Shown in pieces: positions 2,620 through 44,643 of a stretch of 64,000 nt of DNA. The stretch comes from an uncultured Piscirickettsiaceae bacterium (GTDB taxonomy: Bacteria; Pseudomonadota; Gammaproteobacteria; GCF-002020875). Each line of letters starts with the position of its first letter. The first letter of the stretch is position 1. A model generated the notes under the pieces. It was given only the letters and a program-made list of their open reading frames with translations, searched no databases and was not told where the DNA came from. The position numbers and the translations under genes were made by a program. The DNA is taken from positions 3,158 to 67,157 of the forward strand of contig CAYQBY010000003.1 of the NCBI GenBank assembly GCA_964415865.1. The letters run 5' to 3'.

Positions 2620-2709
2620 AAAGAGAGCATTGACACAGATCAAAGCAAAAAACAGCTCTATCGCATAATCTATAGAACGCCTGAATAAACAGAACATAGT
2701 GGAGAGATA

Positions 2710-3438: not shown

Positions 3439-3563
3439 TGTTCAGTTCACCCTCCTCTTTAGGGAGGGTGAAACTTGAATTTCTCATGGAGGAGTGAGTA
3501 ACGATATATAGAACAAAACAGGGCAATAAAACCAGATAAAAAAGATACAAGGTTTTTTCAAAC

Positions 3564-4775: not shown

Positions 4776-4805
4776 AACGAATTGATTTAAGCGGAGTCAA
4801 TCAGC

Positions 4806-10206: not shown

Positions 10207-10237
10207 AAGCTCAACCCTATTATTCTTAATCCCTGCC

Positions 10238-11909: not shown

Positions 11910-12328
11910 ACAATATTTTCTCCTACACCCATAGAGTTCAACTCCACGAGATTGATGGCGCAGGAGTGCTCTTCTATGGAGAGATATTCAGGATTATCCA
12001 TAATGCCTATGAGGAGATGTTATTCAGCAACAACCTTCCTCTTCATAAGATAATTCATGAGCGCAGGGAGGCGATTCCTCTGGTCCACACTGAGGCTGAT
12101 TATTATCGGCAAATTAAACTTGGTGAAACTCTTAATCTAAACATGAAGGTGGCATCCATTGGCGACCACTCCTTTACCCTGAAAACCACCGTAGATGGCT
12201 TTGATAACAATAGTGAGCCACAACATAAAGCTACCGTTACAACTACTCATGTAACCACCTCTATCGATAGCGGGAAAAAGATAATAGTCCCTGATGTTCT
12301 CAGAGAGATCCTGCTGAGATATGAGTGA
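11906..12328 (+). CDS. Hotdog-fold thioesterase (likely 1,4-dihydroxy-2-naphthoyl-CoA hydrolase)
   Basis: 140-aa 4HBT-like protein between menC and menD. Confidence 0.6.
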   Translation: MNNIFSYTHRVQLHEIDGAGVLFYGEIFRIIHNAYEEMLFSNNLPLHKIIHERREAIPLVHTEADYYRQIKLGETLNLNMKVASIGDHSFTLKTTVDGFDNNSEPQHKATVTTTHVTTSIDSGKKIIVPDVLREILLRYE

Positions 12329-14036: not shown

Positions 14037-14881
14037 TTGAGTGGACAAGAGAAGAGAGCTCCAATCGCCCCGAACGATCACAGGACGGTAACTACCAGGA
14101 CATACTCTATGACCATGCAGATGGTATCGCCAAGATAACCATCAACCGCCCTCAGGTGCGTAATGCCTTTAGACCGGAGACTATCAGGGAGATGATGGAG
14201 GCTTTCCACAATGCCCATATGGATCCAGAGATTGGTGCCATCATCCTGACTGGGGCTGGTGACAAGGCATTCTGCTCTGGTGGTGACCAGAAAATACGTG
14301 GCGAAGAGGGATACAGGGATGAGAGAGGTGGACAACATCTAAATGTACTGGATCTGCAGAGACAGATTCGCACCCTCCCCAAACCAGTTGTGGCCATGGT
14401 AAACGGCTTTGCCATAGGTGGTGGACATGTTCTGCATCTGATCTGTGATCTCTCCATCGCATCTGATAACGCCATCTTTGGGCAGACCGGACCCAAGGTT
14501 GGAAGTTTTGATGCAGGTCTCGGCGCGGGGCTGTTAGCACGTACCGTGGGGATGAAAAAAGCAAAGGAGATCTGGTTTCTCTGTCGTCAGTACAGTGCTA
14601 CGGAAGCACTGGAGATGGGGTTGGTAAATAGTGTTGTCCCCCATGACCAACTTGAGGAGGAGACAGTGAGTTGGTGCCAGGAGATGTTGCAGCACAGCCC
14701 AACTGCACTACGGCTTCTCAAGGCTGGGTTCAATGCAGATACCGATGGGCTTGCCGGCATTCAGGAGCTCGCCGGCAATGCAACTGCTCTATTCTATATG
14801 TCAGACGAGGGACAGGAGGGGCGCAATGCTTTTAATGAAAAACGTCCTCCAGACTTCACAAAGTTCAACAGAAGAACATAA
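14033..14881 (+). CDS. menB: 1,4-dihydroxy-2-naphthoyl-CoA synthase (crotonase fold)
   Basis: Crotonase motifs ([11 protein letters not shown]); 282 aa. Confidence 0.85.
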
Positions 14882-14888
14882 ATAATAA

Positions 14889-16259
14889 TTGATGTTCAAT
14901 AAGTTAAAGAATGAACTTGATCTAATTTATAGCGATCAGAGCAGTTCGCTTAATCAGGTTATCAGCATCATTCTCTCATTCAATGAGCGTCCATTCACTG
15001 CCCCGCCACCTCTAAATAGTGGTATCTACTGGAGAAGTCCACGTGAAGAGACGAGACTGCTAGCCCTGCAGAGTGGGTGGCAGAGAGAACTAAAGGGGAG
15101 AGAGCGTTTCACTGAGGCCAGGAAAGAGTTCCTGCAACTCACAAATTCATGGTCCATATTTGACCCGGAAGAGACAGGGGCCTCACCAAAAACACTCTTT
15201 CATTACGCCTTCCATGAGAATGATCCGATGGGGAGTGAGTGGCAGGGCTTTCCCAACACCCTGCTTATGCTGCCGCGAGTTCAGCTCATCAACCAGCGCG
15301 GAAGACAGAGCATAATTTTCTCACATAAAACAGACCAAACAACCCAAGAGGTGATTCTGGAAAACTGGCAGACAGATCTCAACCAGCTTAGGGAGATTCT
15401 AGATAACCACCCTCCCCAAGGATCACCAGCTACAACCACACCTGACAACAGCCTTAATTCAGCAAAACCAATTTTTAGAGATGCAATTGAGAGCATCCAC
15501 TCCACCTCAATCAAAAAGTTGGTGATCGGGCAACAACAATCATTCCACTTCTCCAATCCAGTCAATACAGAACGGACACTGAAAACACTGGAACGGAGTA
15601 GCCCATCAAGCACACAGTTTTTATTCTCCATAGAGGACAAACATTTCATTGCCGCACCTCCTGAACGTCTATTCTCAAAGCAAGGTGATAACGTGGAATC
15701 TGACGCCCTGGCAGGAACCCTGCCCAGAGGCAACAATAATGAAGAGGATATTACACAGGAACAGACCCTGCTCCATGATCCAAAACTACGTCATGAACAC
15801 CAGCTAGTGGTTGATGCCATTGGTAACGCGCTGTCACCACTGTGCAAGACTGTAGATATTCCAGCTATGCCAACTGTTCATAAACTGGAGAATATCCAAC
15901 ACCTGTTGACAGCGATTAAGGGGCAGCTACAGACGGAAGATAACAACAACACCTCCATCTTTGAATTGATTGAGGCACTTCACCAGAGCCCTGCAATCTG
16001 CGGTGATCCAAAAGCAGAAGCGCTCCAGTGGCTAACTAAACACAACAATAGCTATCGTGGTGGATACTGCGGGGGGGCAGGATGGATTGATCCCCATGGA
16101 GATGGAGAGATCCACGTACTACTACGCTGCGCAATGGTTGAGGGCACAAAAGCCATCCTCTACGCCGGTGCCGGCATTGTTGATGGTTCAATTGTCGAGG
16201 ATGAGATATCGGAGATAAGCCTAAAGATTCAAGGTATGCTAAACGCACTTTCAGCCTGA
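14889..16259 (+). CDS. menF: Isochorismate synthase (chorismate-binding enzyme)
   Basis: C-terminal chorismate-binding signature (GGYCGGAGW..., ...AGAGIV); men context. Confidence 0.75.
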   Translation: MMFNKLKNELDLIYSDQSSSLNQVISIILSFNERPFTAPPPLNSGIYWRSPREETRLLALQSGWQRELKGRERFTEARKEFLQLTNSWSIFDPEETGASPKTLFHYAFHENDPMGSEWQGFPNTLLMLPRVQLINQRGRQSIIFSHKTDQTTQEVILENWQTDLNQLREILDNHPPQGSPATTTPDNSLNSAKPIFRDAIESIHSTSIKKLVIGQQQSFHFSNPVNTERTLKTLERSSPSSTQFLFSIEDKHFIAAPPERLFSKQGDNVESDALAGTLPRGNNNEEDITQEQTLLHDPKLRHEHQLVVDAIGNALSPLCKTVDIPAMPTVHKLENIQHLLTAIKGQLQTEDNNNTSIFELIEALHQSPAICGDPKAEALQWLTKHNNSYRGGYCGGAGWIDPHGDGEIHVLLRCAMVEGTKAILYAGAGIVDGSIVEDEISEISLKIQGMLNALSA

Positions 16260-30842: not shown

Positions 30843-31328
30843 ATGAAAGTTACAAAAGACCGAGTCATAACCATTGAGTACAAGATGGTAAATCATAAAG
30901 GAGAGATTATTGATAGCACTGACAACAGTGATGCACTCTCATTCATTCAAGGATATGGATCAGTAATTCCTGCAATTGAGAAACAGATTGAAGGACACCA
31001 CACAGGAGATCGCCTTACTTTTGCTCTTAAACCAACAGATAGTTACGGAGAGAGAGATGAGTCAAAAGTTAAAGTAATACCAAAGAGCCAGTTCAATATG
31101 GATGGTGACCTTCATGTTGGCATGCAATTCTATACCCATAAAAATGGACATGATATTCCTGTCACAATTACTACTATAAATGATCAGCAAATAACCATTG
31201 ATGGAAACCACCCACTAGCTGGTGCTGATATCAATGTTGATCTGGTTATAGTTGATGTACGTGAGGCTATTGATGTTGAACTTGAAAGTGGTGAAGTTCA
31301 AACTGATGAGGATATATTCAATAACTGA
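30843..31328 (+). CDS. slyD: FKBP-type peptidyl-prolyl cis-trans isomerase (SlyD-like)
   Basis: N-terminal FKBP pattern (VITIEYKMVNHKGEIIDST...LSFIQGYGSVIPAIE) with IF insertion. Confidence 0.8.
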   Translation: MKVTKDRVITIEYKMVNHKGEIIDSTDNSDALSFIQGYGSVIPAIEKQIEGHHTGDRLTFALKPTDSYGERDESKVKVIPKSQFNMDGDLHVGMQFYTHKNGHDIPVTITTINDQQITIDGNHPLAGADINVDLVIVDVREAIDVELESGEVQTDEDIFNN

Positions 31329-32287
31329 GCCCTCAACCACTCTCGATCCAATTTCCCCATACTGTTTCGTTTTAATCCAGATACAAACAGCAGTTCTCGT
31401 GGACGCAGACTTGATGAAATATTAGCTCTCATCCATCTGCTTACGATCTCCTCCTGATCTCTCTCACCATCTATAACTGCAACAATACGCTCACCCCACT
31501 CCTTATCAGGAATAGACCCTACCGCCACATCTCTCACCCCTGGTGCAGAGACCATCAACTGCTCTATTACGACAGGATCAATGGTCTCCCCTCCAGAGAT
31601 AATCCGATCATCCAGCCTTCCATAAATATGGAGATGTCCGTCCTTATCCATAGCCCCATGGTCAGCTGTTACAACCTCATCCTCACCCAGTAACAGATTA
31701 CTCCTTATCCTTATCTCACCCTGCTCTCCTATAGCAATAGAGACTCCAGACAGAGGGGCTCCTACATCACTATCATCCCACTGATCTATATTTTCTCTAC
31801 CAAGTCGCAACATGGTGATTCTGGATGCGGTCTCGGTCATCCCATAGGAGACAACAATGGGCCACCCGCTCTCTACTGCACGCTGGGCCAGTGGCTTTGG
31901 CAGACGGTCTCCACCAATCAGTACCGTCTTCAGTGATTCAGGGGCAGGCTTATCTCCGAAGTAATCCAGCAGTTTTGAGAGCATTACAGGTACAAGCGAG
32001 ATATGGGTGATAGTGTAACGCCCTAGATCACCATAAATTCTTTCTGGATAAAAACCCTCATGAAGCAGCATGGTGGCCCCTGCCTCTTCACAACGATATT
32101 TGATAGAGAGTCCGCCAACATGATTTAGGGGAAGACAGTTTAGCCAGCAATCCCCTTTCTGAAGTCTCTCATACTGCTGCCCCATACGAGCACTAGCACG
32201 AAGGGTATCTACGGAGAGGAGAACCTTTTTTGAAATACCTTCAGTACCACTGGTCTCCAGAATGAGGCCTGCTCCATCGGCACTCAT
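31298..32287 (-). CDS. menE: MenE-like acyl-CoA (o-succinylbenzoate) ligase lacking the N-terminal ~110 residues; starts at the P-loop
   Basis: AMP-binding P-loop TSGTEGISKK at residues ~13-22; C-terminal adenylate-forming domain; in-frame stop two codons upstream of the ATG; ATGA overlap with ubiE. Confidence 0.6.
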   Translation of the reverse strand: MSADGAGLILETSGTEGISKKVLLSVDTLRASARMGQQYERLQKGDCWLNCLPLNHVGGLSIKYRCEEAGATMLLHEGFYPERIYGDLGRYTITHISLVPVMLSKLLDYFGDKPAPESLKTVLIGGDRLPKPLAQRAVESGWPIVVSYGMTETASRITMLRLGRENIDQWDDSDVGAPLSGVSIAIGEQGEIRIRSNLLLGEDEVVTADHGAMDKDGHLHIYGRLDDRIISGGETIDPVVIEQLMVSAPGVRDVAVGSIPDKEWGERIVAVIDGERDQEEIVSRWMRANISSSLRPRELLFVSGLKRNSMGKLDREWLRAQLLNISSSV

Positions 32288-33000
32288 TTCTCACCAATAT
32301 GGATAGCGGCAATTCCGAAGGTTAGATTGCTGTAGCTAACATTTGTGAATCCAGCCTGCTCCATCAACCTCTTCATCTCTTCCTGGTCAGGAAAGCGGCG
32401 GATAGATTCCACCAGATAATTGTAGGCAATTGGTGCCTTGGCTATCCATGCACCGAGTCGTGGGATCACATAGAAGGAGTGGAGATCATAAAATGGCTTG
32501 ATCAACCAGTGGGGTCTGGAGAACTCAAGACAATACATTTTCCCACCAGGCTTTAGCACGCGATTTATCTCGCGCAGAGCCTGCTCCATGTTTGTCATAT
32601 TACGGATACCAAAAGAGATGGTAAGACGGTCAACCGAGTTGTCATCCAATGGAATTGACTCCCCTGCTCCCACACGAAACTCCACCCCCTCTATTCCTCT
32701 CCTCTCACCCTCAGCCATCATCGCCTCACTGGGGTCTATAACAATAACTGTTCTCTCACCTGCTGCCATCTTTTCTGCTATATCACCAGTACCTCCAGCA
32801 AGGTCAACTATCAACTCGTTATTCTCTGGACTAACCATCTTTACCAGATGACGCTTCCAGAGACGGTGGATACCGAAACTCATCATATCGTTCATAAGAT
32901 CATAGCGGGGTGCTACTGCCTGAAAAACCGCGCGGATCTTCTCCTCGCGCTCCTGCTCGCCTACCTTTGAAAAACCAAAAGTCTGTGACAGCTTGTCCAT
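32284..33000 (-). CDS. ubiE: Demethylmenaquinone/ubiquinone C-methyltransferase
   Basis: UbiE/MenG signature (YDLMNDMMSFGIHRLWK) and SAM motif (DLAGGTGD). Confidence 0.9.
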   Translation of the reverse strand: MDKLSQTFGFSKVGEQEREEKIRAVFQAVAPRYDLMNDMMSFGIHRLWKRHLVKMVSPENNELIVDLAGGTGDIAEKMAAGERTVIVIDPSEAMMAEGERRGIEGVEFRVGAGESIPLDDNSVDRLTISFGIRNMTNMEQALREINRVLKPGGKMYCLEFSRPHWLIKPFYDLHSFYVIPRLGAWIAKAPIAYNYLVESIRRFPDQEEMKRLMEQAGFTNVSYSNLTFGIAAIHIGEK

Positions 33001-33842
33001 TATCTAATTGCCCCACCAAGATCATAGAGCGTACGGTGCACCCCGTGGCATCGTGCACAGACCGCAACCCCAACCTCACCCAATTTTCGACCAACCCCGC
33101 TGGAGTTTTTAGTAAGCAGAACAGATAGCTCTTCCAACAGAAATTCTGTCTCCTCACCAAGGATACGTTCTCGAGGATATTCGTCACGGTGACAGCCACT
33201 ACAGCTCTCACCCAGATCAATCACCCTAGTTGAGAACAGATCAAGATAATCTGTTGCGGCAGTTATGCGTCCGTCCTCAACTGCAATCTTGAAACGGTTC
33301 ATTGAGGTTGAAAGGTTATTCATTGTATCTTTGTAGGATAGCTCCTCCATGGTTTCACTATCCTCAACCATTACCTTCTCAAAATTTGGGGTTCTGTATA
33401 ACGCCGCAGTCACTGCCCGATAATCATCATGGCATGAACCACAGGTCATACCCACTTTTCTGAGGGCGCCGCCCATGGCCTCCCAATCTCTATCTTTTAT
33501 CACCTGCTCAAGTCGATTTATCCATTTTGGTTCAATCTCGTTACTCCACTCAGGCACCATCTCGGTAATGCTTCTATAGTCCTTGATAAATTGTGAACCC
33601 CACTTATCCAGCAGCTTCTCATTCTGCAGGGCCGTATACTCCTGAATTGCCAGCATGGAACGGCGCAGACGGAACATGGTATGGAGCCATACCTGCCTCT
33701 TATTTTGTGGTTTGTACCACTGAGCGATGGATGTTGGTGGTAGCTGAACTGACATCTCCTGTTCATAACTCTGCGTATCAGCACTGCAAAGTGGTGACAG
33801 AAAGAGTGTGACTGCAATAAAAGCGATATTTTTTATATTCAT
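33000..33842 (-). CDS. Periplasmic tri-heme c-type cytochrome of unknown family, inside the men operon
   Basis: Signal peptide; three CxxCH motifs (CGSCH, CSGCH, CARCH), each at the end of a ~80-aa predicted helical segment. Confidence 0.6.
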   Translation of the reverse strand: MNIKNIAFIAVTLFLSPLCSADTQSYEQEMSVQLPPTSIAQWYKPQNKRQVWLHTMFRLRRSMLAIQEYTALQNEKLLDKWGSQFIKDYRSITEMVPEWSNEIEPKWINRLEQVIKDRDWEAMGGALRKVGMTCGSCHDDYRAVTAALYRTPNFEKVMVEDSETMEELSYKDTMNNLSTSMNRFKIAVEDGRITAATDYLDLFSTRVIDLGESCSGCHRDEYPRERILGEETEFLLEELSVLLTKNSSGVGRKLGEVGVAVCARCHGVHRTLYDLGGAIR

Positions 33843-34714
33843 AGGTAAAGTCCAAATATCATCAAGATTCCAAACAGAAGCTGGAGCTGAGCCGTCTGTG
33901 CCAACAGTTTATTTAATCCTCTACCATGAGGTAAAAGATAGATTTTTCTCCCCAGGTAGAGTGAAACCGGTAGTGCCGGCATCATAACCCATATCAATAA
34001 CGGCTTCTGAAGTTGTTCAGACAAAATCAGAAGTATCAGGAATGGGGTTAATAAAAGTGTGAGATAGAGAACTCTGGTAAGCGACATTCCTAAACCAACT
34101 GCCAGGGTGTTTTTTCCAACAACACGATCAGTATCAATATCTCGATAGTTGTTTACAACTAGAACTGCTGCAGCCAACAGCCCTATCGCGGACCCTGCCA
34201 ATAGAGCTGTAGAGCTCCACTGCAGAGTAACCAGGTAGGTAGTACCCATAACTGCAGCAACACCAAAAAAGAGAAAGACAAATAGCTCTCCCATAAATGT
34301 ATAGGCAATGGGGATGCGGCCTCCAGTATAGGCAAGCCCCGCAGCAATTGATGACAGCCCAATCAACAAGATTGGTAGCCCACCAACCACAACCAGGGAT
34401 ATCCCTATTATAAAAGCTGCTGAAAAAGATCCAATTGCAGCCTTTTTAACACCATTCGCACTCAACAACCCTTCCGAAACCATCCGCTTTGGACCAAGAC
34501 GATCTGGACCATCAGCTCCACGTAGCGCATCCCCAGCATCATTGTATAGATTTGTCCCAACCTGAATCAGAAGAGCCGCCAGAAGAATAAGGGTGAGTAG
34601 CAGAGGTTTAAACAGGGCACTCTCTGTATGAGCTATAACTGCTCCCAGAAGTACCGGAATTACCGCCATTGAGAGGGTTTTTGGACGTACGGCATGTAAC
34701 CATGGGGAGTTCAT
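33839..34714 (-). CDS. menA: 1,4-dihydroxy-2-naphthoate polyprenyltransferase (UbiA family)
   Basis: UbiA-family NDAGD motif; 8-9 TM helices. Confidence 0.85.
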   Translation of the reverse strand: MNSPWLHAVRPKTLSMAVIPVLLGAVIAHTESALFKPLLLTLILLAALLIQVGTNLYNDAGDALRGADGPDRLGPKRMVSEGLLSANGVKKAAIGSFSAAFIIGISLVVVGGLPILLIGLSSIAAGLAYTGGRIPIAYTFMGELFVFLFFGVAAVMGTTYLVTLQWSSTALLAGSAIGLLAAAVLVVNNYRDIDTDRVVGKNTLAVGLGMSLTRVLYLTLLLTPFLILLILSEQLQKPLLIWVMMPALPVSLYLGRKIYLLPHGRGLNKLLAQTAQLQLLFGILMIFGLYL

Positions 34715-34812
34715 AAACAGCTGCTCTTGATCTGAATCAACACCGTCTCAGTCTCGCATTTGGTAAGATTGTCCGCAAGTAACACCTTCATAATAATCTA
34801 CAATTTACCTCT

Positions 34813-35160
34813 ATGAAAAAAAGCTACCTTATACTCTGTTTTGCACTACTAACAGCACCAGTTCACGCTGTCAGTGACCATCAACTTGAGAAGGTAAAAC
34901 AGTTGGGGGAGCTCAACGGGATTGCTCTTAATTGTGGATATATTGATGAGACCCGCAGAATGAAACGAGCTATGGTATCAACTGTCCCCAAGATCAGGGT
35001 TATTGGGATAGCTTTTGATGAGGCAACTAACAGCTCCTTTCTCTCAACAATCAAATCGGGAAATTCATGTCCTACAGAGAAGTCACTTAGCCAACAGGTT
35101 GACAGCAGTATTGAGCAGTTGGAAACAGTATTTATGAATCATCAGGAGAAACTATTTTGA
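34813..35160 (+). CDS. Small secreted protein, unknown
   Basis: Signal peptide; 115 aa; ATGA-coupled to the downstream fusion gene. Confidence 0.4.
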   Translation: MKKSYLILCFALLTAPVHAVSDHQLEKVKQLGELNGIALNCGYIDETRRMKRAMVSTVPKIRVIGIAFDEATNSSFLSTIKSGNSCPTEKSLSQQVDSSIEQLETVFMNHQEKLF

Positions 35161-36587
35161 GGCTGCTCTCCCTATTTGTACTGCTCATCTTCTCCTCAAC
35201 CACATGGAGTGGCGAGCCTCTCAGGATTGTTACCACCATAAAACCAATTCATTCAATCCTCTCTGGTCTACTGGCAGGGACACGGCCTCCCGAACTACTT
35301 GTAGATAATCAGCAATCACCATATACAGTAACTCTCTCAAGATCCAAGCAACATACCATCAGGGATGCTGATATGGTCGTATGGGTGGGGCCAGAACTGG
35401 AGCAGTTTATGGTTAAGCAGATAGAACAGCTTGGCCCGAAGACAACCCTCTTTACCCTGCTTGATAATGAAGAGATCAAGGTTCTTCAGTCACGCTGGAA
35501 CAAGGGGAAACGTGATCCATTCTTATGGCTTGATAGCCGCAACATACTTATCCTTACTGATGAGCTTTTCAGAGCACTAATCAAGCTTGATCCAGAGCGC
35601 AGATCTCTATATGAAAATAACCGACGCAACCTGTTAAGCAGACTGGCAGAACTTGACCGCCGCCTGGAGTATGGATACAGAGGGCTGAAGAGCGGTATTG
35701 GCATGGCCTACTACGATACCTTGCAGTATTTTGAACAGGCATATGCACTAAAAATCAGGGGGGTGGTTGCAGAGTCACCAACAACACCAGTTAGTGGACT
35801 CTCTTTTCTACAGAGCAGGGCCAAACTCAAAAGTGGTGACTATAGCTGTCTGTTGACTGAACAGCAGATCGATCCTGATGACTTATCTCTGCTTACCAAT
35901 GAGATCACACTCAATATTGGTCTTTTGGACAGTTTTGGATCAAAAATAGATGCTGGAGAAGATCACTACTTCAAATTGATGGAGCAGAATACAGCTACTA
36001 TCAAACAGTGCTTAAAGTACGTGGATGATTCAATTGCAGAGGAGGTAGCAAAAGAGGTCATCCAAAACAGCACCAGTAATTCCACCACAACCAGCTATAT
36101 TGGTGGCAAGTTCATGTTACGTGATCATCACGGTAAACTATTTACCGACCAGGATATGCTGGGGGCATTCCATCTGGTCTACTTTGGATATACCTTCTGT
36201 CCTGATGTCTGCCCCACCTCACTACTCACCATCTCCTCAGCACTGAACAAACTTGGGGATGATGCCAAACAGATCCAGCCATACTTCATAACGGTTGACC
36301 CAGCCAGAGACAGACCAGAGGCGCTAAATACCTATGTTAACTATTTTCACCCGACCCTGATTGGACTAACTGGCACTCAGTCCATGATTGACCGGGTTGC
36401 CCGAATGTATCATGTGAAGTATGAGAAGGTTATTGACGAATCAAGAGACCCTGATCAATACATCATGGATCACTCATCAGGGGTTTTTGTGATGGCGCCC
36501 AGTGGAGAGTTCATAACTAAATTAGCTCACGGAATATCAGCTGATGATATGGCTGCCCGCATCAGAGATGTCCTGTCAAAACAATAG
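35157..36587 (+). CDS. Fusion protein: degenerate ZnuA/TroA-like periplasmic solute-binding domain plus a C-terminal SCO1/SenC copper-chaperone domain
   Basis: N-terminal TroA fold pattern with two canonical metal-binding His replaced (DPFLWLD for DPHxWLD; YDTLQYF for HDAFGYF); C-terminal CPDVCP CxxxC motif and conserved DHSSGVFV His. Confidence 0.65.
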   Translation: MRLLSLFVLLIFSSTTWSGEPLRIVTTIKPIHSILSGLLAGTRPPELLVDNQQSPYTVTLSRSKQHTIRDADMVVWVGPELEQFMVKQIEQLGPKTTLFTLLDNEEIKVLQSRWNKGKRDPFLWLDSRNILILTDELFRALIKLDPERRSLYENNRRNLLSRLAELDRRLEYGYRGLKSGIGMAYYDTLQYFEQAYALKIRGVVAESPTTPVSGLSFLQSRAKLKSGDYSCLLTEQQIDPDDLSLLTNEITLNIGLLDSFGSKIDAGEDHYFKLMEQNTATIKQCLKYVDDSIAEEVAKEVIQNSTSNSTTTSYIGGKFMLRDHHGKLFTDQDMLGAFHLVYFGYTFCPDVCPTSLLTISSALNKLGDDAKQIQPYFITVDPARDRPEALNTYVNYFHPTLIGLTGTQSMIDRVARMYHVKYEKVIDESRDPDQYIMDHSSGVFVMAPSGEFITKLAHGISADDMAARIRDVLSKQ

Positions 36588-36936: not shown

Positions 36937-37623
36937 TTAAAAGTCCGGGTTCTTCCACCCTTCTGGTGCCACATCCTCTGCAGGTGGCTTAATTCTGGAA
37001 ATATAGTCCGCCAGGATCGAAAGCTCAGCATCCTTCATCTTGCTAACCCTGCGCATCATCTCGCTATTGGCATTACGTCTCTTGCCGTCACGAATCCACC
37101 TCAACTGCCTTAACAGATAGGCATAGTGCTGGCCTTGGACGCGAGGAAAATATCTAACAGGATCTCCTCCACCATCACCACCATGACATTCGGCACATTT
37201 TCTAAAATATGTACGTTCCGCCTTGCCCAGTTTATGCCCAGGGCCAATACCTGGGGTTGAGGTCATAGGTAGCGTCTGAATATAGGCAGTGACATCAGCA
37301 ATTGCCTGAGGGCCACCCATCACCTTCTCCTGGGCGATTACCAACATGGATGGATTATCCCGATTGCCAGCTCTGATATCGGCAATCTGCTTGATTATGA
37401 CACTACTGTGCTGTCCTGCGAGCTGAGGATAACTGCCATCAACAGTTCCCCATGAATTGGTTTGGTGACAAACAACACAGAGCCTGAAAACCTGCTTACC
37501 TGACTCCACATTTGGAGTGGCTGCCATTGCAATGGCAAGCTCATCATCGAGTGGCGCATCGGCTGAGACCACAAAAGAGAGGAGTACAGCACCAACCCCA
37601 AATAACCTACCCAACTCTCTCAT
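36937..37623 (-). CDS. Diheme cytochrome c4-type protein
   Basis: Signal peptide; CVVCH and CAECH motifs. Confidence 0.8.
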   Translation of the reverse strand: MRELGRLFGVGAVLLSFVVSADAPLDDELAIAMAATPNVESGKQVFRLCVVCHQTNSWGTVDGSYPQLAGQHSSVIIKQIADIRAGNRDNPSMLVIAQEKVMGGPQAIADVTAYIQTLPMTSTPGIGPGHKLGKAERTYFRKCAECHGGDGGGDPVRYFPRVQGQHYAYLLRQLRWIRDGKRRNANSEMMRRVSKMKDAELSILADYISRIKPPAEDVAPEGWKNPDF

Positions 37624-37629
37624 ATAACT

Positions 37630-38214
37630 CTACTTTACCCCGTTGGATATCAGGAACTGACCCAGCTCCTTATCAGTGCGTACGATATGGTCAAGTAGCC
37701 ACTCCTTCAGGAAGTGGTGAATCTCTGTGCTGAGATCCTCCTGGTCATCCAGATTACCTGTATGTTGACCACTAAAGGTCTCTACCTTCTCCACCATATC
37801 CCTATGCTGCTTCATGTGCGCATCTATATCTGGCCAGTTGTTATCTCTCATCAACCCCTCCTCGCGCTCGAAATGGTATTTGGTATATTCGATCAATTCA
37901 TCAATAACACCCTTCACATACCCCTCACCCATATTGTAATGGGAGGCACTAACAACCTGATTCAACAGTCCAACCAGCTTTTGGTGATCATGATCAATTA
38001 ACTCCACCCCAACCTCATACTGGCTATTCCAATCTATATACTCCTTACGCACACTGCGTTCATGAAGATATGGAATCAATGCCAGAATAACCAATATTAC
38101 CCACGGAACAGGATTGGCCAGACCAGCCTCAGATGTAACAAACCCCAGAAAGACGACCACTAACGCAACGATGATCAGTGAGAACAGTGCGAACATCGAG
38201 TAACTTTTTTTCAT
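37630..38214 (-). CDS. Membrane-anchored hemerythrin-like protein
   Basis: N-terminal TM helix; HHE cation-binding pattern (HDHQKLV...H...H..E...H...D). Confidence 0.7.
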   Translation of the reverse strand: MKKSYSMFALFSLIIVALVVVFLGFVTSEAGLANPVPWVILVILALIPYLHERSVRKEYIDWNSQYEVGVELIDHDHQKLVGLLNQVVSASHYNMGEGYVKGVIDELIEYTKYHFEREEGLMRDNNWPDIDAHMKQHRDMVEKVETFSGQHTGNLDDQEDLSTEIHHFLKEWLLDHIVRTDKELGQFLISNGVK

Positions 38215-38282
38215 AAAACAGATTCCTCGCGAGAGTTAAACACAACTAAAGGTAGCATACCTAAGATACCATTATGAATGAT

Positions 38283-38296
38283 TTGATGTGTATCAA
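38283..38296. promoter_or_regulatory. FNR/Dnr-type box TTGAT-GTGT-ATCAA
   Basis: Perfect palindrome ~75 bp upstream of both the hemerythrin/c4 operon (minus) and dnr (plus). Confidence 0.7.
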
Positions 38297-38367
38297 ACCC
38301 TTAACAAACCAGAACAATACCTATAAACTTCACACACATTATAAGAACTAGAACTACCAAACCACCC

Positions 38368-39054
38368 ATGTCTATATCCACTGTTTTTGAGCGCGAGCTT
38401 CGCCGCTCCCCACTATTTTCCTCTCTATCCAAAGAGGCCATGGAAGATATTATAGACTCATCCGAACTTATCAGAAAAAAACCTAATGAGGTTCTGTTTC
38501 TGCAGGGAGATGCCGCTACCCATTTCTATGTTGTACGGACCGGCACCATTAGACTCTACCTGCTTACTCCAGATGGCGATGAAAAAACCGTAAATATCCT
38601 GCAGGCCGGCAACTCTTTTGCTGAGGCAATGGTGTTTATGGATGGCGGCAAATACCCAGTCAACAGCCAGTTTCTAGAGGACGGAGAGATATTCTCCTTC
38701 AACAGTAAGGTATACAAAAATATCATGCGCACAGATCCTGAAACAACCTTCTCGATCATGGCCGATCTTAGTATGCGACTACAGAACTACGTGCAGGAGA
38801 TCGAGCAGCTCTGCCTGCATAATGCCACCCACAGACTAATGAGTTACCTGCTTACCTTTATTCCTGCCGAGGACAATGAGGGAACCTTTCAATTACCAAC
38901 CCAAAAAAGCGTCATTGCGTCCAGACTCTCAATTCAGAGAGAGACCTTCTCGCGCATTCTTGGAAAACTGAAAAAGAGAAAGATGATTGATGTTAATGGC
39001 AACGAGGTTCATATCCTCGATGCTAAAATGATGCGCAGCGCTCTAGTTGATTGA
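38368..39054 (+). CDS. dnr: CRP/FNR-family transcriptional regulator, Dnr/NnrR-type
   Basis: cNMP-binding domain plus C-terminal HTH; no N-terminal Cys cluster. Confidence 0.75.
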   Translation: MSISTVFERELRRSPLFSSLSKEAMEDIIDSSELIRKKPNEVLFLQGDAATHFYVVRTGTIRLYLLTPDGDEKTVNILQAGNSFAEAMVFMDGGKYPVNSQFLEDGEIFSFNSKVYKNIMRTDPETTFSIMADLSMRLQNYVQEIEQLCLHNATHRLMSYLLTFIPAEDNEGTFQLPTQKSVIASRLSIQRETFSRILGKLKKRKMIDVNGNEVHILDAKMMRSALVD

Positions 39055-39402
39055 TACCACACTAATGTTCCCAACCATCTCAGGATGTGGGCCACATAGA
39101 TAACTATAGACCCCCTCTTGGGTGAAAGTATGTTCCCAGCTCTCCCCGGGAAAGAGATACTCTGACCCAACCAGATCACCTCCACCATAACCATTCAGTT
39201 TTACTGAATGATACTGCCTCTTCTCATGGTTGACCCAGCGTACTGTATCACCAGGATTGATCGTCACAGTTTGCGGTTGGTATCTGTAATCAATAATCTC
39301 AACCTCAACCACCCTTGGTTGAGGTATATCATTCGAACATCCTGACACAAAAAAAAGGCCTCCCAGCAGAAGCATGAGAGGCCTGTTATTAATCATTGTC
39401 AT
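39043..39402 (-). CDS. Blue-copper cupredoxin (amicyanin/plastocyanin-like) lipoprotein
   Basis: Lipobox FFVSGC; type-1 Cu ligands H..., CGPHPEM (C-x2-H-x2-M as in amicyanin). Confidence 0.7.
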   Translation of the reverse strand: MTMINNRPLMLLLGGLFFVSGCSNDIPQPRVVEVEIIDYRYQPQTVTINPGDTVRWVNHEKRQYHSVKLNGYGGGDLVGSEYLFPGESWEHTFTQEGVYSYLCGPHPEMVGNISVVSIN

Positions 39403-39403
39403 C

Positions 39404-41095
39404 TCACCATTTTACAGCATTGATCTCCGCTTTTGGATTGTCAAATCCGAGCTTGTAACCAAATGAGACATGGTGGAAGCGTCCATTTGTATAGTCATCG
39501 TGGATGGCGAAACCAAAGTTATAGACCTGGTCCAGTACCAGAGTTAGGTCATCTACATCACCAGAACTGAGCTTGCGCTTCATATCTACCACCCAGTTAC
39601 CCTGATCATCTCTCTTGCCCTCAAACTCAAGGTCACCACTATTACCACTCATATCACGATCAGCAAGTATCATTCCATCCTCAGCCTGCTTACTACCCGA
39701 CTTGTAGCGCACAAGATCCATGATCTTTTTCTGATCCAGTGCCGCCTTAATCTCTTCAGGCTTTCTCAGCTTGTCCCAGCCACCACGCTTCTTGCCACGA
39801 CGCCCCTTCACCTCAATCTTGGTACGTGACTCCTTGGTGTATTTGGTTACATCTGTACCCTCTGGCTGATGAGGCATACCGTTGGCATCATGGTGACAAG
39901 TTCCCCAACAACCTGCTCTATCCGCAAACTCAACCTCATCTGTAGCAAACATCATTGCCAGCTTGACAGGGTTCTCAGGATCCATCCGCTCAGAATCTGC
40001 AACTGGCTTATACTCTGTTGCTTCATTATGGTGGGCAACATCATGCCAGATAAACCGCATATATAGATTCTCACCATCATGTGCGGCCTTCACCATCACC
40101 GGGATTCCACCTCGCTTGCCAGGAATTGGAGTGGGCTCCATCGCCTTCTCATGCTTTCCACCAACAATACGGTCACCCATAACCTTGGCCTCTTTATCAT
40201 GACAGGTAAAGCATCTATCTCCACCCTTTTTAAAGGCATTTGCCCCACCATGATCTGTTCCATTAAGCACCCACTCTATGGATGTCTGTCCAGGATAGAT
40301 AACATAGATCTCTCTCCCTACAATAGATGACCAATCACCAGCCTTGGCTGATGCTGCCGCCTTGGCTGCTGCCTCAGCTGCCGCCTTCTCTGCTGCGGCT
40401 TTGGCTGCTGCCGCCGCCACTGGATCAAGATCAGCAAGCTGGAACAGTTTTGCCCCAGGTTTCGCCAGTGACTCGTCAGGGGCCTCCATAGCCTCCTTCT
40501 CCTCATCACTCAACAGCTTATGAACCCCTTTGTGCGCAACACCCTTATGACAGTCAATACAGGTCTGTCCCGATCTAAGAGCATTGGTATGTTGATTCAT
40601 AGCACGAGGTTTCTGCATGTCTCCATTCATAGCCTCAAAATTGTGGCAGTTCCGACACTCTCTGGAATCGGTACTCTTCATCGAACGCCATACATTTTTT
40701 GCCAACTGCAGACGTTTCGCATCAAACTTTTCAGGGGTATCAATAGTCCCCAGCACTTTATGCAACACCTCGTTACTGGCCTGAATCTTTCTGGCTACCT
40801 TATGTACCCATGGATCAGGTACATGACAATCCGAACAGGTTGCCCGTACTCCAGTACGATTCGCATAGTGGATAGTCTTCTGGTACTCCTTGTAAACATT
40901 GTCCTCCATCTCATGACATGAGATACAGAACTCAAGAGTATTGGTAACCTCCATTGCCGTATTGAATCCACCCCAGAAGATAATTCCAAACAGGGCAAAA
41001 ACCAGGCCTCCTCCAAGTGTCGTATTGAGGATCAAACGACGTGAGAACATCAACTTCATTCTCTCTTTGAAACTTGGTCTCTCAGGAATTGGCAT
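39404..41095 (-). CDS. nirT: NapC/NirT-family membrane tetraheme cytochrome fused to a ~370-aa C-terminal periplasmic domain with additional heme motifs
   Basis: N-terminal TM anchor plus four CxxCH (CISCH, CSDCH, CRNCH, CIDCH); Ala/Lys-rich linker; then CFTCH and CWGTCH; start chosen at MPIPERPS so that the nirS1 terminator is not included. Confidence 0.7.
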   Translation of the reverse strand: MPIPERPSFKERMKLMFSRRLILNTTLGGGLVFALFGIIFWGGFNTAMEVTNTLEFCISCHEMEDNVYKEYQKTIHYANRTGVRATCSDCHVPDPWVHKVARKIQASNEVLHKVLGTIDTPEKFDAKRLQLAKNVWRSMKSTDSRECRNCHNFEAMNGDMQKPRAMNQHTNALRSGQTCIDCHKGVAHKGVHKLLSDEEKEAMEAPDESLAKPGAKLFQLADLDPVAAAAAKAAAEKAAAEAAAKAAASAKAGDWSSIVGREIYVIYPGQTSIEWVLNGTDHGGANAFKKGGDRCFTCHDKEAKVMGDRIVGGKHEKAMEPTPIPGKRGGIPVMVKAAHDGENLYMRFIWHDVAHHNEATEYKPVADSERMDPENPVKLAMMFATDEVEFADRAGCWGTCHHDANGMPHQPEGTDVTKYTKESRTKIEVKGRRGKKRGGWDKLRKPEEIKAALDQKKIMDLVRYKSGSKQAEDGMILADRDMSGNSGDLEFEGKRDDQGNWVVDMKRKLSSGDVDDLTLVLDQVYNFGFAIHDDYTNGRFHHVSFGYKLGFDNPKAEINAVKW

Positions 41096-41127
41096 GGATA
41101 GCTCCCCAGGCAATACAAATAAGTTAT

Positions 41128-41162
41128 ATAAAAAAGCCGGCACCTGATATGCAGGTGCCGGC
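41128..41162 (-). terminator. Rho-independent terminator downstream of nirS copy 1
   Basis: GCCGGCACCTG-atatg-CAGGTGCCGGC stem followed by a T-run on the minus strand. Confidence 0.75.
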
Positions 41163-41173
41163 CACTACTCTAC

Positions 41174-42808
41174 TTAGGTTACGTGGTTAGTTCTACTGTA
41201 AACGTTGAACTTACCAGTTGGTGTGGTCAGTCCCTTGATACGAGCCTTCTCTTCAAGAGTGTCCGCATCATAGACTACGATCTCACCAGTTGGGTTACCG
41301 TTATCAGTACGGTTCCAGACAGAGACCCAGGCCTCACTTCCATCCTTGTTAAACTCAATATGGAGTGCCGCCTTACCCTTCTCTTCAGTTACACGGATGG
41401 TCTTAACGATCTCACCGGTCTCCTTGGAGATAACCTGTACAGACTGCTGGATCTCAGGCTCAGGATTCTTGACCTGATCTGCCCATACGTACTTGGAGTT
41501 TGGATGAGTACGGATAAACGCACCTGCTCCATCAGTCTCGATCTCACGTACGATCTTCCACGCCTTGCTTGGTGTACCAGCTGGATCATTACCCCATACG
41601 GTTACCATGCCTGTTCCCAGATGGACTGTAGCACCTACAGGACCATGCTTTGGATCATCCCAGTTTGCACCAGGACCAGGGTGTGGCTTCTTGCCAGTGG
41701 TATCAATCATCGCCTCAAGCTTGCGGGTCTTGGTATCAACTACAACCATCTTGTTGGATGCATTTGCCGCAATCTGGAAGTAACGTCCGGTTGGATCAAA
41801 GAATCCATCATGAAGATATTTAGCTGAATCAATCTTGGTGATTCGAAGATTCTCGATATCAGTGTAGTCAACCTGCCACATCTGTCCCAGCTCCTTGACC
41901 GCAACCAGGAAGGTTGGCTCGTTTGGAGTGGTGTAGACCGCAGCTACGCGTGACTCATTTACATATTCACCATCAACATTTACCCCGCGAGTGGATACTA
42001 CCTTCAGCGGCTCCATGGTCTTGGCATCAGCAATTACGAAGTGTGGTGGCCAGTAGCCTCCACCAATTACATATTTACCGTCACCAGAGATTGCAACATC
42101 ACGTGCATCGTATGCAATCTGGGTCTTGGCAACCAGCATGCTTCCTGGCTGTTGCCATAGATCGATCTTACTCATTACACCATCACGACCCATTGTGTAC
42201 CAGAAACGTCCGGCAACACCATTCTCTGGGTGCTCAGTCTCATGATGCTCAGTGGCCTTGATTACGTGTACTGCATAACCAGTATCAATATGGTCGATAA
42301 TCTCTTTGGTATCACCATCGATTACTGCTGCCTTACCGGCATCACGCTCGATTACTACGAAGAAGTTCTCCCAATTGCGGCCATGCAGTGGCTTGGTTGG
42401 ATAGTCCTTAGGATCGACAAATACCTCTGTGCGCTCCTTCATCATAGCCAGTGACATCTCTGGTGGAACTGGTGGCTCCAACTGGATGTAGGTGGCCATC
42501 ATTGAGATCTCTTCTTTACTGAAAATATCATCAAAGTTGTTCATTCCACCGTCTGTTCCGTAAGTCAGGATCTTCTCTAGACGCTCCTGACCTAGTTCAC
42601 GAGTATTTTTTGGCTCCAGGCTCTTGCCTGTCGCTCCCTTTCTCAGTACACCGTGACAACCTGCACAGCGTTGGAAATAGAGCTTCTTGGAGTGCTCAAA
42701 ATCCGCCTCTGATAGTGATGGCTCAGCACTTACTGTAGTACCGACCCCGCCCATTGCAACACCCACTGCAAGACTTAACGCAGTCAATGATAATTTCTTC
42801 ATATTCAT
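41174..42808 (-). CDS. nirS: Cytochrome cd1 nitrite reductase NirS, copy 1 (Sec signal peptide, soluble periplasmic)
   Basis: Signal peptide MKKLSLTALSLAVGV...; c-heme CAGCH; d1 eight-bladed propeller sequence; start taken at MNMKK. Confidence 0.92.
   Translation of the reverse strand: MNMKKLSLTALSLAVGVAMGGVGTTVSAEPSLSEADFEHSKKLYFQRCAGCHGVLRKGATGKSLEPKNTRELGQERLEKILTYGTDGGMNNFDDIFSKEEISMMATYIQLEPPVPPEMSLAMMKERTEVFVDPKDYPTKPLHGRNWENFFVVIERDAGKAAVIDGDTKEIIDHIDTGYAVHVIKATEHHETEHPENGVAGRFWYTMGRDGVMSKIDLWQQPGSMLVAKTQIAYDARDVAISGDGKYVIGGGYWPPHFVIADAKTMEPLKVVSTRGVNVDGEYVNESRVAAVYTTPNEPTFLVAVKELGQMWQVDYTDIENLRITKIDSAKYLHDGFFDPTGRYFQIAANASNKMVVVDTKTRKLEAMIDTTGKKPHPGPGANWDDPKHGPVGATVHLGTGMVTVWGNDPAGTPSKAWKIVREIETDGAGAFIRTHPNSKYVWADQVKNPEPEIQQSVQVISKETGEIVKTIRVTEEKGKAALHIEFNKDGSEAWVSVWNRTDNGNPTGEIVVYDADTLEEKARIKGLTTPTGKFNVYSRTNHVT
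41178..42721. repeat. Direct repeat unit A (1544 bp, 100% identical to 42890..44433), mature nirS coding region
   Basis: Identical spurious ORFs in the six-frame track at a constant +1712 offset; base-by-base boundaries checked. Confidence 0.95.
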
Positions 42809-42843
42809 AGTTCTCCTAAACAAAACAAAAAACCTCCTCTTGT

Positions 42844-42876
42844 AAAAAACCCCTTTAGCCAATCAGGTTAAAGGGG
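42844..42876 (-). terminator. Rho-independent terminator downstream of nirS copy 2
   Basis: CCCCTTTA-loop-TAAAGGGG stem followed by TTTTTT on the minus strand. Confidence 0.7.
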
Positions 42877-42885
42877 TCTCTTTTA

Positions 42886-44643
42886 TCAAGTTACGTGGTT
42901 AGTTCTACTGTAAACGTTGAACTTACCAGTTGGTGTGGTCAGTCCCTTGATACGAGCCTTCTCTTCAAGAGTGTCCGCATCATAGACTACGATCTCACCA
43001 GTTGGGTTACCGTTATCAGTACGGTTCCAGACAGAGACCCAGGCCTCACTTCCATCCTTGTTAAACTCAATATGGAGTGCCGCCTTACCCTTCTCTTCAG
43101 TTACACGGATGGTCTTAACGATCTCACCGGTCTCCTTGGAGATAACCTGTACAGACTGCTGGATCTCAGGCTCAGGATTCTTGACCTGATCTGCCCATAC
43201 GTACTTGGAGTTTGGATGAGTACGGATAAACGCACCTGCTCCATCAGTCTCGATCTCACGTACGATCTTCCACGCCTTGCTTGGTGTACCAGCTGGATCA
43301 TTACCCCATACGGTTACCATGCCTGTTCCCAGATGGACTGTAGCACCTACAGGACCATGCTTTGGATCATCCCAGTTTGCACCAGGACCAGGGTGTGGCT
43401 TCTTGCCAGTGGTATCAATCATCGCCTCAAGCTTGCGGGTCTTGGTATCAACTACAACCATCTTGTTGGATGCATTTGCCGCAATCTGGAAGTAACGTCC
43501 GGTTGGATCAAAGAATCCATCATGAAGATATTTAGCTGAATCAATCTTGGTGATTCGAAGATTCTCGATATCAGTGTAGTCAACCTGCCACATCTGTCCC
43601 AGCTCCTTGACCGCAACCAGGAAGGTTGGCTCGTTTGGAGTGGTGTAGACCGCAGCTACGCGTGACTCATTTACATATTCACCATCAACATTTACCCCGC
43701 GAGTGGATACTACCTTCAGCGGCTCCATGGTCTTGGCATCAGCAATTACGAAGTGTGGTGGCCAGTAGCCTCCACCAATTACATATTTACCGTCACCAGA
43801 GATTGCAACATCACGTGCATCGTATGCAATCTGGGTCTTGGCAACCAGCATGCTTCCTGGCTGTTGCCATAGATCGATCTTACTCATTACACCATCACGA
43901 CCCATTGTGTACCAGAAACGTCCGGCAACACCATTCTCTGGGTGCTCAGTCTCATGATGCTCAGTGGCCTTGATTACGTGTACTGCATAACCAGTATCAA
44001 TATGGTCGATAATCTCTTTGGTATCACCATCGATTACTGCTGCCTTACCGGCATCACGCTCGATTACTACGAAGAAGTTCTCCCAATTGCGGCCATGCAG
44101 TGGCTTGGTTGGATAGTCCTTAGGATCGACAAATACCTCTGTGCGCTCCTTCATCATAGCCAGTGACATCTCTGGTGGAACTGGTGGCTCCAACTGGATG
44201 TAGGTGGCCATCATTGAGATCTCTTCTTTACTGAAAATATCATCAAAGTTGTTCATTCCACCGTCTGTTCCGTAAGTCAGGATCTTCTCTAGACGCTCCT
44301 GACCTAGTTCACGAGTATTTTTTGGCTCCAGGCTCTTGCCTGTCGCTCCCTTTCTCAGTACACCGTGACAACCTGCACAGCGTTGGAAATAGAGCTTCTT
44401 GGAGTGCTCAAAATCCGCCTCTGATAGTGATGGTCCGGATGCAGCCACCTTGGCTGGTGCTGCTGGGGCTGGAGCAGGGGCTGGTGCCGCTGCTGGAGCT
44501 GGTGCTGGTGCTGGTGCTGGTGCTGCAGTTTTTGATGCACCTGAATCACCAGAGTCACCACACCCTGATAATCCCAGAGTCATGACTATTGCCAGACTCA
44601 GGGTTGCACCCTTCTTGAAACTCCTCTTCTTACCATCGATCAT
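42886..44643 (-). CDS. nirS: Cytochrome cd1 nitrite reductase NirS, copy 2, lipoprotein form with a Pro/Ala-rich linker
   Basis: Lipobox LGLSGC followed by (PA)n linker; then identical to copy 1 from SLSEADFEH to the C-terminus. Confidence 0.9.
   Translation of the reverse strand: MIDGKKRSFKKGATLSLAIVMTLGLSGCGDSGDSGASKTAAPAPAPAPAPAAAPAPAPAPAAPAKVAASGPSLSEADFEHSKKLYFQRCAGCHGVLRKGATGKSLEPKNTRELGQERLEKILTYGTDGGMNNFDDIFSKEEISMMATYIQLEPPVPPEMSLAMMKERTEVFVDPKDYPTKPLHGRNWENFFVVIERDAGKAAVIDGDTKEIIDHIDTGYAVHVIKATEHHETEHPENGVAGRFWYTMGRDGVMSKIDLWQQPGSMLVAKTQIAYDARDVAISGDGKYVIGGGYWPPHFVIADAKTMEPLKVVSTRGVNVDGEYVNESRVAAVYTTPNEPTFLVAVKELGQMWQVDYTDIENLRITKIDSAKYLHDGFFDPTGRYFQIAANASNKMVVVDTKTRKLEAMIDTTGKKPHPGPGANWDDPKHGPVGATVHLGTGMVTVWGNDPAGTPSKAWKIVREIETDGAGAFIRTHPNSKYVWADQVKNPEPEIQQSVQVISKETGEIVKTIRVTEEKGKAALHIEFNKDGSEAWVSVWNRTDNGNPTGEIVVYDADTLEEKARIKGLTTPTGKFNVYSRTNHVT
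42890..44433. repeat. Direct repeat unit B (1544 bp, identical to 41178..42721)
   Basis: As above. Confidence 0.95.
44458..44530. repeat. Simple-sequence repeat (GCTGGT/GCTGGG)n encoding the Pro-Ala linker of lipoprotein NirS
   Basis: gctggggctggagcaggggctggtgccgctgctggagctggtgctggtgctggtgctggtgctg. Confidence 0.85.

Follow-up and report, generated by a model that had tools for sequence, protein, structure and literature searches.

A triheme cytochrome related to class II cytochromes, encoded among menaquinone genes in a gammaproteobacterial denitrification island

Why should a gene for a c-type cytochrome lie within an operon for menaquinone biosynthesis? The case arises in a 64,000-nucleotide stretch of contig CAYQBY010000003.1 (the window), from an uncultured Piscirickettsiaceae bacterium, in which a protein with three CxxCH haem-binding motifs is encoded between menA and ubiE. 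We infer, with moderate confidence, that this triheme cytochrome is a periplasmic electron-transfer protein of denitrification, and the partners proposed below are put forward on the same footing. Among the grounds for the denitrification role, 36 of 80 loci analysed link the gene to nir, nor or nos genes, several of the arrangements being co-directional and tightly spaced, and the window groups nos, nar and nir genes in one island, along with three perfect FNR/Dnr boxes, a dnr-like regulator and narXL. The protein is a multihaem variant built from class II cytochrome modules, in no characterised family, widespread and unstudied.

The gene, its product and its operon

Reading frame, motifs and a readable signal peptide bear out the preliminary description of the locus, which had announced an exported triheme cytochrome of 280 amino acids (aa) between menA and ubiE:

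33000..33842, minus strand: triheme c-type cytochrome gene, 280 aa (basis: open reading frame, three CxxCH motifs, partial PF01322 match, 846 homologues)
33777..33842, minus strand: predicted Sec-type signal peptide, aa 1-22, read from the sequence, with cleavage between CSA and D

The N-terminus, MNIKNIAFIAVTLFLSPLCSA followed by D, reads as a Sec signal peptide; AlphaFold gives a helix over aa 2-19 and then an unstructured linker, and the N-terminus is variable among homologues. Predicted cleavage would leave a mature protein of ~258 aa, ~29.7 kDa without haems and with a pI of ~5.5. The motifs are CGSCH (CxxCH-1, aa 134-138, window 33429-33443), CSGCH (CxxCH-2, aa 214-218, window 33189-33203) and CARCH (CxxCH-3, aa 262-266, window 33045-33059), spaced by 80 and 48 residues. 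None of the three varies among 113 close homologues or in relatives as distant as ~20% identity (33 remote sequences), so that they are not chance occurrences. The mature protein has no cysteine outside these motifs, Cys19 falling in the signal peptide, and just five histidines, at positions 54, 138, 218, 266 and 269. The lack of a lipobox, together with a Cys19 that homologues do not keep, led us to reject a lipoprotein identity. Apart from the signal peptide the protein has no hydrophobic segment, and it shows neither a membrane segment nor a recognisable quinol site. The gene product is thus most likely a soluble periplasmic triheme c-type cytochrome, predicted to be exported. Its GC content (0.466) and GC3 (0.466) are within the range of its neighbours, and recent foreign insertion of the gene is not supported.

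The gene is flanked closely on both sides:

33839..34714, minus strand: menA, 1,4-dihydroxy-2-naphthoate polyprenyltransferase (NF004751, 274.5 against a cut-off of 264)
32284..33000, minus strand: ubiE/menG methyltransferase (TIGR01934, 263.6 against a cut-off of 158)
31298..32287, minus strand: short-form MenE, o-succinylbenzoate-CoA ligase-like, 329 aa (NF005877, 146.5, below the cut-off of 345)

The overlapping start and stop codons reported earlier are present: ATGA joins the menA stop to the cytochrome start, TAATG the cytochrome stop to the ubiE start, and ATGA again the ubiE stop to the menE start. With such overlaps the four genes form one tightly packed transcription unit, which, to judge from these junctions, is probably translationally coupled. 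In the stretch from menA to the cytochrome gene, consensus scans for promoters and terminators stayed at background level. The last gene had been recorded as an incomplete menE, a label that does not survive. Its product aligns to residues 141-477 of Bacillus subtilis MenE, without the ~140 N-terminal residues, and spans positions 42-360 of the 362-position NF005877 model, nearly end to end; a length of ~325-340 aa is kept in eight of the nine related loci that include the gene, and is 377 aa in L001. A pseudogene or truncated gene is accordingly rejected in favour of a short form conserved in related loci.

Fold, haem sites and kinship

An AlphaFold2 model of the full protein, built on a 113-sequence alignment, is all-helical and confident (pLDDT 93.1, pTM 0.74). 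As modelled, the triheme cytochrome consists of two four-helix bundles that carry one and two haems:

33393..33734, minus strand: N-terminal four-helix bundle (bundle 1), class II cytochrome-like, haem 1, aa ~37-150; candidate distal ligand Met56
33006..33335, minus strand: C-terminal four-helix bundle (bundle 2), haems 2 and 3, aa ~170-279; candidate distal ligands His269 and Met174

The helices of bundle 1 span aa 51-71, 75-95, 105-116 and 120-149, with CxxCH-1 on the last of them; a short beta-hairpin (aa 158-169) leads to the helices of bundle 2, at aa 170-189, 193-216, 230-245 and 247-279, where CxxCH-2 sits at the end of the second and CxxCH-3 inside the fourth. The C-terminal part modelled alone (pLDDT 93.7, pTM 0.87) superposes on four-helix-bundle proteins. 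The earlier picture of three four-helix modules of ~80 residues each holds for ancestry and fails for architecture. Profile-profile comparison of segments finds the haem-binding helix hairpin before each CxxCH to be a threefold internal repeat (aa ~108-140 against 181-220, 95% probability; against 234-273, 85-89%), but the bundles are two, and the motif spacing is 80 and then 48.

In the wider superfamily the three CxxCH motifs never vary, and neither do His269, Pro36, Tyr43 and Trp99; Met56 is kept almost without exception, position 174 is Met in most members and Lys in some, and His54 is not conserved. Met56 lies on helix A of bundle 1, Met174 at the N-terminal end of the helix that opens bundle 2, and the invariant His269, one of two histidines outside the motifs, one turn past His266. 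This conservation points to ligation by His/Met56, His/His269 and His/Met174, which would render all three haems six-coordinate; three candidate sixth ligands for three haems is the pattern expected of an electron-transfer cytochrome. In cytochromes c556 and b562, too, helix A bears a conserved methionine; in some cytochromes c' the conserved methionine at the corresponding position is not a haem ligand.

The likeness to cytochromes c' and b562 claimed in the preliminary description is real for bundle 1. Class II cytochromes (c', c556 and the b562 fold; PF01322) are four-helix bundles with CxxCH on the last helix, as in bundle 1, and the PF01322 match scores 42.7 bits against a cut-off of 26.5 (E 1.3e-10), covering only aa 107-142 against profile positions 86-121. 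Cytochrome c' chains in the Protein Data Bank (PDB) match the same segment (E 2e-4), and bundle 1 superposes on cytochrome c' 1cpr in Foldseek (TMt 0.58). Only bundle 1, however, matches class II. Known class II members have ~110-135 aa, one CxxCH and one haem, a description that bundle 1 alone fits, whereas the mature triheme cytochrome has 258 aa, two bundles and three haems, two of them in one bundle, with a CxxCH ending that bundle's second helix, which is not seen in class II. It is a relative, not a typical member, of the class. A Foldseek search of the PDB yielded no counterpart for the whole protein (best E 0.24); with bundle 2 it returned NaxLS (6r6o, TMt 0.68), variants of cytochrome b562 (0.72-0.74) and several cytochromes c', each at E > 0.1. 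NaxLS (Kusta0087/Kusta0088 of Kuenenia stuttgartiensis, PDB 6r6m-6r6o), the top and non-significant match of bundle 2, with a weak sequence match besides (E 0.004), is likewise a small helical-bundle cytochrome c with a link to nitrogen oxides. It has been described as an NO-binding heterodimer of two monohaem subunits (PMC11897245), and differs from the triheme cytochrome in this construction as well as in organism and pathway (anammox).

These kinships raise the alternative of a multihaem cytochrome c' that binds or buffers nitric oxide (NO), sequestering it or shuttling it between NirS and Nor, or protecting against nitrosative stress. The only significant sequence match is indeed to cytochrome c', and the common neighbours of the gene, nirS, norCB, dnr and haemerythrin, are all NO-linked. 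We nevertheless consider NO binding an unlikely function, since the conserved candidate ligands Met56, Met174 and His269 argue for six-coordinate haems, the Foldseek matches reflect mainly the generic four-helix-bundle fold, and co-orientation with cupredoxin, cytochrome c peroxidase (CCP) and multihaem cytochrome genes, described below, better suits an electron carrier.

Other identities were tried and rejected. The triheme c7 and nanowire 3-haem models score below threshold (PF14522, 19.3 against 24.8; TIGR04257, 16.3 against 40); a NapC/NirT quinol dehydrogenase is excluded by the lack of a PF03264 match, by three haems, and by a hydrophobic segment that is signal peptide only; and a Men enzyme by Pfam and NCBIfam matches that are of cytochrome type only. 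Cytochromes c7/PpcA and c3 and NapC/NirT are also small proteins that bear three or four c-type haems, and their sub-threshold hmmscan matches arise through CxxCH. They have little secondary structure and ~20-40 residues per haem, while the triheme cytochrome is all-helical with ~86 per haem and no membrane anchor.

The family is nonetheless large. A word-indexed protein search (E <= 1e-3) returned 846 homologues, nearly all of ~280 aa, and an exhaustive profile search 309 clusters at 50% identity, 227 of these with E <= 1e-10. The named homologues of the word-indexed search are all from Gammaproteobacteria (Sedimenticola, Chromatiales, Polarisedimenticolaceae, and Candidatus Thiopontia autotrophica at 86% identity); a remote subfamily, with 20-25% identity and equal length and motifs, occurs in Aquifex pyrophilus and in metagenome-assembled genomes (MAGs) of Aquificota, Nitrospinota and Aminicenantes. 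In a few longer members the extra length is due to tandem duplication or to a SnoaL, SdrD_B or coiled-coil region, which offers no functional hint. Source annotations are generic only ("cytochrome c", "c556", "c553"). Checks against characterised cytochrome families gave no full-length match in Pfam, NCBIfam or the PDB: NCBIfam has no named family for the protein, Pfam gives only the partial PF01322 match with the rest below threshold, and the family profile finds no full-length homologue with a solved structure among PDB sequences, matching only the last helix of cytochromes c' and b562 and of the Kuenenia "small soluble cyt c". In the literature on triheme cytochromes in denitrification, on men genes with nirS in Gammaproteobacteria, and on Thiopontia, neither the protein nor the arrangement was found described.

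Gene neighbourhoods across the family

Loci were taken from a scan of one genome per species, and the best 80 of 231 were analysed. As far as their contigs reach, the nine closest (L001-L009, labelled as Piscirickettsiaceae or Methylophaga MAGs) have the order menA-cyt-ubiE-menE, with cytochromes 57-71% identical to the window protein; they also hold the divergent DUF115/ZnuA-SCO operon, the dihaem cytochrome, the haemerythrin and the dnr gene that accompany it in the window. A neighbour-joining tree groups these loci and the window as a single monophyletic clade, nested among others whose gene contexts are those of denitrification. The search for men-embedded cytochromes in relatives that had been suggested at the outset thus succeeds within this clade and fails beyond it, men genes near the cytochrome being absent in ~68 of 70 more distant loci. 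In L026, a Sedimenticola MAG, menA is divergent from the cytochrome gene; in L077 the cytochrome gene and dnr are followed by menD, menF, menB and menA. The family as a whole is not men-linked, and the arrangement is specific to one clade.

An arrangement with a single origin, in one monophyletic clade, might be without meaning: the cytochrome gene could have been trapped between men genes by rearrangement in a densely filled respiratory island, and have stayed there as the clade is young or the operon hard to break. The very variable context of the family elsewhere, where some genes stand alone, would accord with this. The arrangement has, however, outlasted divergence of the cytochrome to 57% identity with the window protein, while over the same span the flanks have changed (an MFS gene; menF, menB and menD in differing places). 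The overlaps with both neighbours, moreover, imply co-transcription and probably translational coupling, and the window holds a second junction of cytochrome and men genes, where a dihaem cytochrome c gene meets menC. We find a purely neutral gene order quite improbable.

We took as a denitrification-island gene one whose homologues have nir, nor or nos genes no more than 6 kb away in several independent arrangements, and this is what the cytochrome family shows: such genes occur in 36 of the 80 loci, in at least five arrangements, in counts that are not of independent events, as the best 80 loci are phylogenetically clustered. Recurrent neighbours outside the men-embedded clade are nirS with haem d1 genes, norCB, nosZ/nosD, dnr, NirT-EB_dh, cupredoxin and CCP. 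In Sedimenticola loci the cytochrome gene is convergent with SNase-nirS-nirJ-nirDLGH; in tubeworm endosymbionts it is divergent from norCB and is itself followed, in its own direction, by genes for a multihaem Cytochrome_cB and a cytochrome b561 (these two overlap by 1 nt). In Candidatus Thiodiazotropha the order, all in one direction, is nirS, nirT-EB_dh, cupredoxin, cytochrome and di-haem CCP, the last two separated by 15 nt or overlapping by 4 nt; the cupredoxin (L061, 5551-5883; 110 aa) belongs to the plastocyanin/azurin family and lies between nirT-EB_dh and the triheme cytochrome. Two Sedimenticolaceae loci, L033 and L049, have nirT-nirS-haemerythrin-nirE-dnr-cytochrome-ZnuA/SCO-DUF115-nosZ, which is the window order minus the men genes, with dnr and the cytochrome gene co-directional and adjoining ZnuA-SCO and nosZ. 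The existence of this order without men genes indicates that the cytochrome belongs to the denitrification island and that the men genes joined it in the lineage of the window.

Remote homologues (~25% identity) adjoin a c554-like multihaem cytochrome of ~290-325 aa in all three long contigs (Aquifex pyrophilus L083, 8555-10763; L085 and L086, both from metagenomes), and in Aquifex a DUF2231 membrane protein precedes the pair; DUF2231, triheme and c554-like proteins may form a conserved three-gene redox module. Co-location with periplasmic redox carriers, membrane quinol-linked modules and denitrification enzymes is the common theme of these neighbourhoods.

Eight Sedimenticola contigs (L014, L031, L038, L046, L048, L051, L065, L075) end 180-410 bp upstream of the cytochrome gene, which suggests a repeat or other assembly-breaking element there. 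FNR/Dnr boxes occur upstream of the cytochrome gene in 10 of 78 non-men loci against a background of ~4%, mostly as one Sedimenticola motif, and are not taken as evidence.

The denitrification island and the proposed role

With its nos, nar and nir genes the window is a denitrification island, and almost the whole classical men pathway lies in it as well. Its first part is a single co-directional string:

69..16259, plus strand: nos-men gene string, with nosZ, cytochrome c, nosD, nosG, nosH, nosF, nosL, nosY, dihaem cytochrome c and men genes
6224-8022, plus strand: NosGH, candidate quinol-oxidising module
10142-10906, plus strand: dihaem cytochrome c
10896-11909, plus strand: menC, overlapping the dihaem cytochrome gene (the second cytochrome-men junction)
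11906-12328, plus strand: 4HBT thioesterase
12321-14036, plus strand: menD
14033-14881, plus strand: menB
14889-16259, plus strand: menF

The genes menC, menD, menB and menF, half of the men pathway, and the thioesterase gene continue the nos string on the same strand, with stops and starts that overlap or lie a few bases apart, as checked from nosF (7947) to menF (16259). NosGH has been described as a quinone-oxidising module resembling NapGH (PMC3475470). After menF come narIJHG, two narK-like transporter genes, narXL and then the menA-cyt-ubiE-menE operon, on whose other side a divergent operon and a nir module follow:

34813..36587, plus strand: divergent operon, encoding an exported 115-aa DUF115 protein without family match and a ZnuA-SCO1/SenC fusion
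36937..44643, mixed strands: adjacent nir module, from a dihaem cytochrome c to two NirS genes
36937-37623, minus strand: dihaem cytochrome c
37630-38214, minus strand: haemerythrin
38368-39054, plus strand: Crp/Fnr-family, dnr-like regulator
39404-41143, minus strand: NirT/NapC-EB_dh fusion, true NirT-type, 579 aa
41174-42862 and 42886-44643, minus strand: two tandem full-length cd1 nirS paralogues, 562 and 585 aa

Distances from the cytochrome gene are 7 kb to nirS and 10 kb to nar. The NirT-EB_dh protein, a tetrahaem quinol dehydrogenase fused to an ethylbenzene dehydrogenase gamma-like haem b domain, always adjoins nirS, and reaches ~930 aa in Candidatus Thiodiazotropha (L061, 2708-5497). 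Beyond the nirS genes lie nirE, F, D, L, G, H, J and N, haem A synthesis genes and relatives of the haem-copper oxidases. Among the latter region's products are a divergent haem-copper-oxidase-like protein with a weak COX1 match (55126-56481, plus strand; E 8e-7), a second COX1-family protein of 578 aa and an unusual 522-aa cytochrome b N-terminal/4Fe-4S/FlpD fusion (61166-62902 and 57668-59236, minus strand), which may be alternative modules for NO reduction or quinol oxidation.

Three perfect TTGATnnnnATCAA palindromes occur in the window, where ~0.06 would be expected by simple base-frequency arithmetic. Those at 34727-34740 (menA/DUF115) and 38283-38296 (haemerythrin/dnr) are within divergent intergenic regions; that at 44865-44878 is at the edge of the nirS/nirE divergent region and overlaps the annotated nirE start codon. 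The first was followed into the relatives:

34727..34740: perfect FNR/Dnr-type palindrome TTGATCTGAATCAA, in the 98-bp menA/DUF115 divergent intergenic region

It is kept with 0-1 mismatch in all eight related loci that cover the region. Its centre is 79.5 nt from the DUF115 start, with a -10-like hexamer, TAAGAT, 24-29 nt downstream on the plus strand, and only 19.5 nt from the menA start codon. This geometry fits a class II promoter toward DUF115/ZnuA-SCO, so that the predicted box most plausibly activates, and probably drives, the divergent SCO operon.

The fusion encoded in that operon (35157-36587, plus strand) joins a ZnuA-type periplasmic metal-binding domain to SCO1/SenC and is likely a copper chaperone; earlier work had noted SCO1/SenC paralogues in the vicinity of nos genes (PMC3475470). 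The DUF115/ZnuA-SCO pair adjoins the cytochrome gene in L001-L009 and in L033 and L049, with nosZ following in the latter two, and from this one might suppose that the cytochrome is a maturation factor for copper or N2O reductase that works with the pair, for example by keeping SCO thiols or copper reduced. Most family members, however, have no SCO or nos gene nearby, and the two units are divergently transcribed in the window, which leaves a part in copper maturation very improbable.

A more substantial alternative retains the menaquinol connection of the preliminary description: a carrier dedicated to the menaquinol pool, reached via NirT-EB_dh or NosGH, and co-operonic because the chain depends on menaquinone, not ubiquinone. 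The overlaps and the menA-cyt-ubiE-menE order kept in the window and nine loci are as this would have it, and so are the men genes beside the cytochrome in other arrangements in L026 and L077, the continuation of a nos string containing NosGH by menC-D-B-F, and the co-orientation with membrane redox proteins (cytochrome b561, DUF2231, NirT) in other lineages. What tells against a dedicated carrier is that, once the clade is set aside, ~68 of 70 loci lack a nearby men gene, that the island order of the window exists without men genes in L033 and L049, and that the triheme cytochrome has neither a membrane segment nor a recognisable quinol site. Of the original proposal a possible indirect link through NirT-EB_dh or NosGH survives; dedication to menaquinol we hold to be conceivable, yet doubtful.

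The soluble donors of nir and nos clusters include cytochrome c551 NirM, NirC, pseudoazurin and NosC. These resemble the triheme cytochrome in being small periplasmic carriers encoded beside cd1 nitrite reductase, a NirT-type dehydrogenase or nos genes; they are class I monohaem cytochromes or cupredoxins, with no kinship to it in sequence or fold. In the denitrification role that we favour, the triheme cytochrome would take electrons from a membrane quinol-oxidising module, NirT-EB_dh and possibly NosGH, and would pass them to periplasmic reductases, namely cd1 NirS, NosZ and cNor, or a peroxidase in other lineages. Being soluble and without a membrane segment, it cannot oxidise menaquinol itself, and a link to the menaquinol pool could run only via NirT-EB_dh or NosGH. 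The menaquinone pathway would have been drawn into the denitrification island in this lineage, the cytochrome gene ending between menA and ubiE, and carrier and quinone pool would then be made together.

Besides the clustering of the loci, several observations weigh against this role. No denitrification gene lies within 6 kb in 44 of the 80 loci, many of them on short contigs, and in some genomes the cytochrome gene is alone among housekeeping genes. The geometry of the palindrome, in favouring the SCO operon, lends no support to co-induction of men and cytochrome genes with denitrification. The candidate methionine ligands, finally, are put forward from conservation, and a five-coordinate, gas-binding haem 1 is possible.

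Beyond model Proteobacteria, little is known of the carriers that connect quinol dehydrogenases with the periplasmic enzymes of denitrification, and they bear on the turnover of nitrite, NO and N2O, which matters in oxygen-deficient waters and in chemosynthetic symbioses. The cytochrome family is widespread in Sedimenticola, in tubeworm and lucinid symbionts and in relatives of Candidatus Thiopontia, and its three haems on two class II bundles are an unprecedented arrangement. We suggest tentatively, as a bold and rather doubtful extension, that marine sulfur-oxidising Gammaproteobacteria related to Candidatus Thiopontia might possess a self-contained menaquinone-based denitrification chain that bypasses bc1, with its own men pathway, NirT-EB_dh, NosGH and a dedicated triheme cytochrome that would feed NirS, NosZ and Nor and found a new c'-derived multihaem class. 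From the linkage of a full men pathway to nos, nir and the cytochrome it would seem that certain Gammaproteobacteria reserve a low-potential quinone pool for the respiration of nitrogen oxides.

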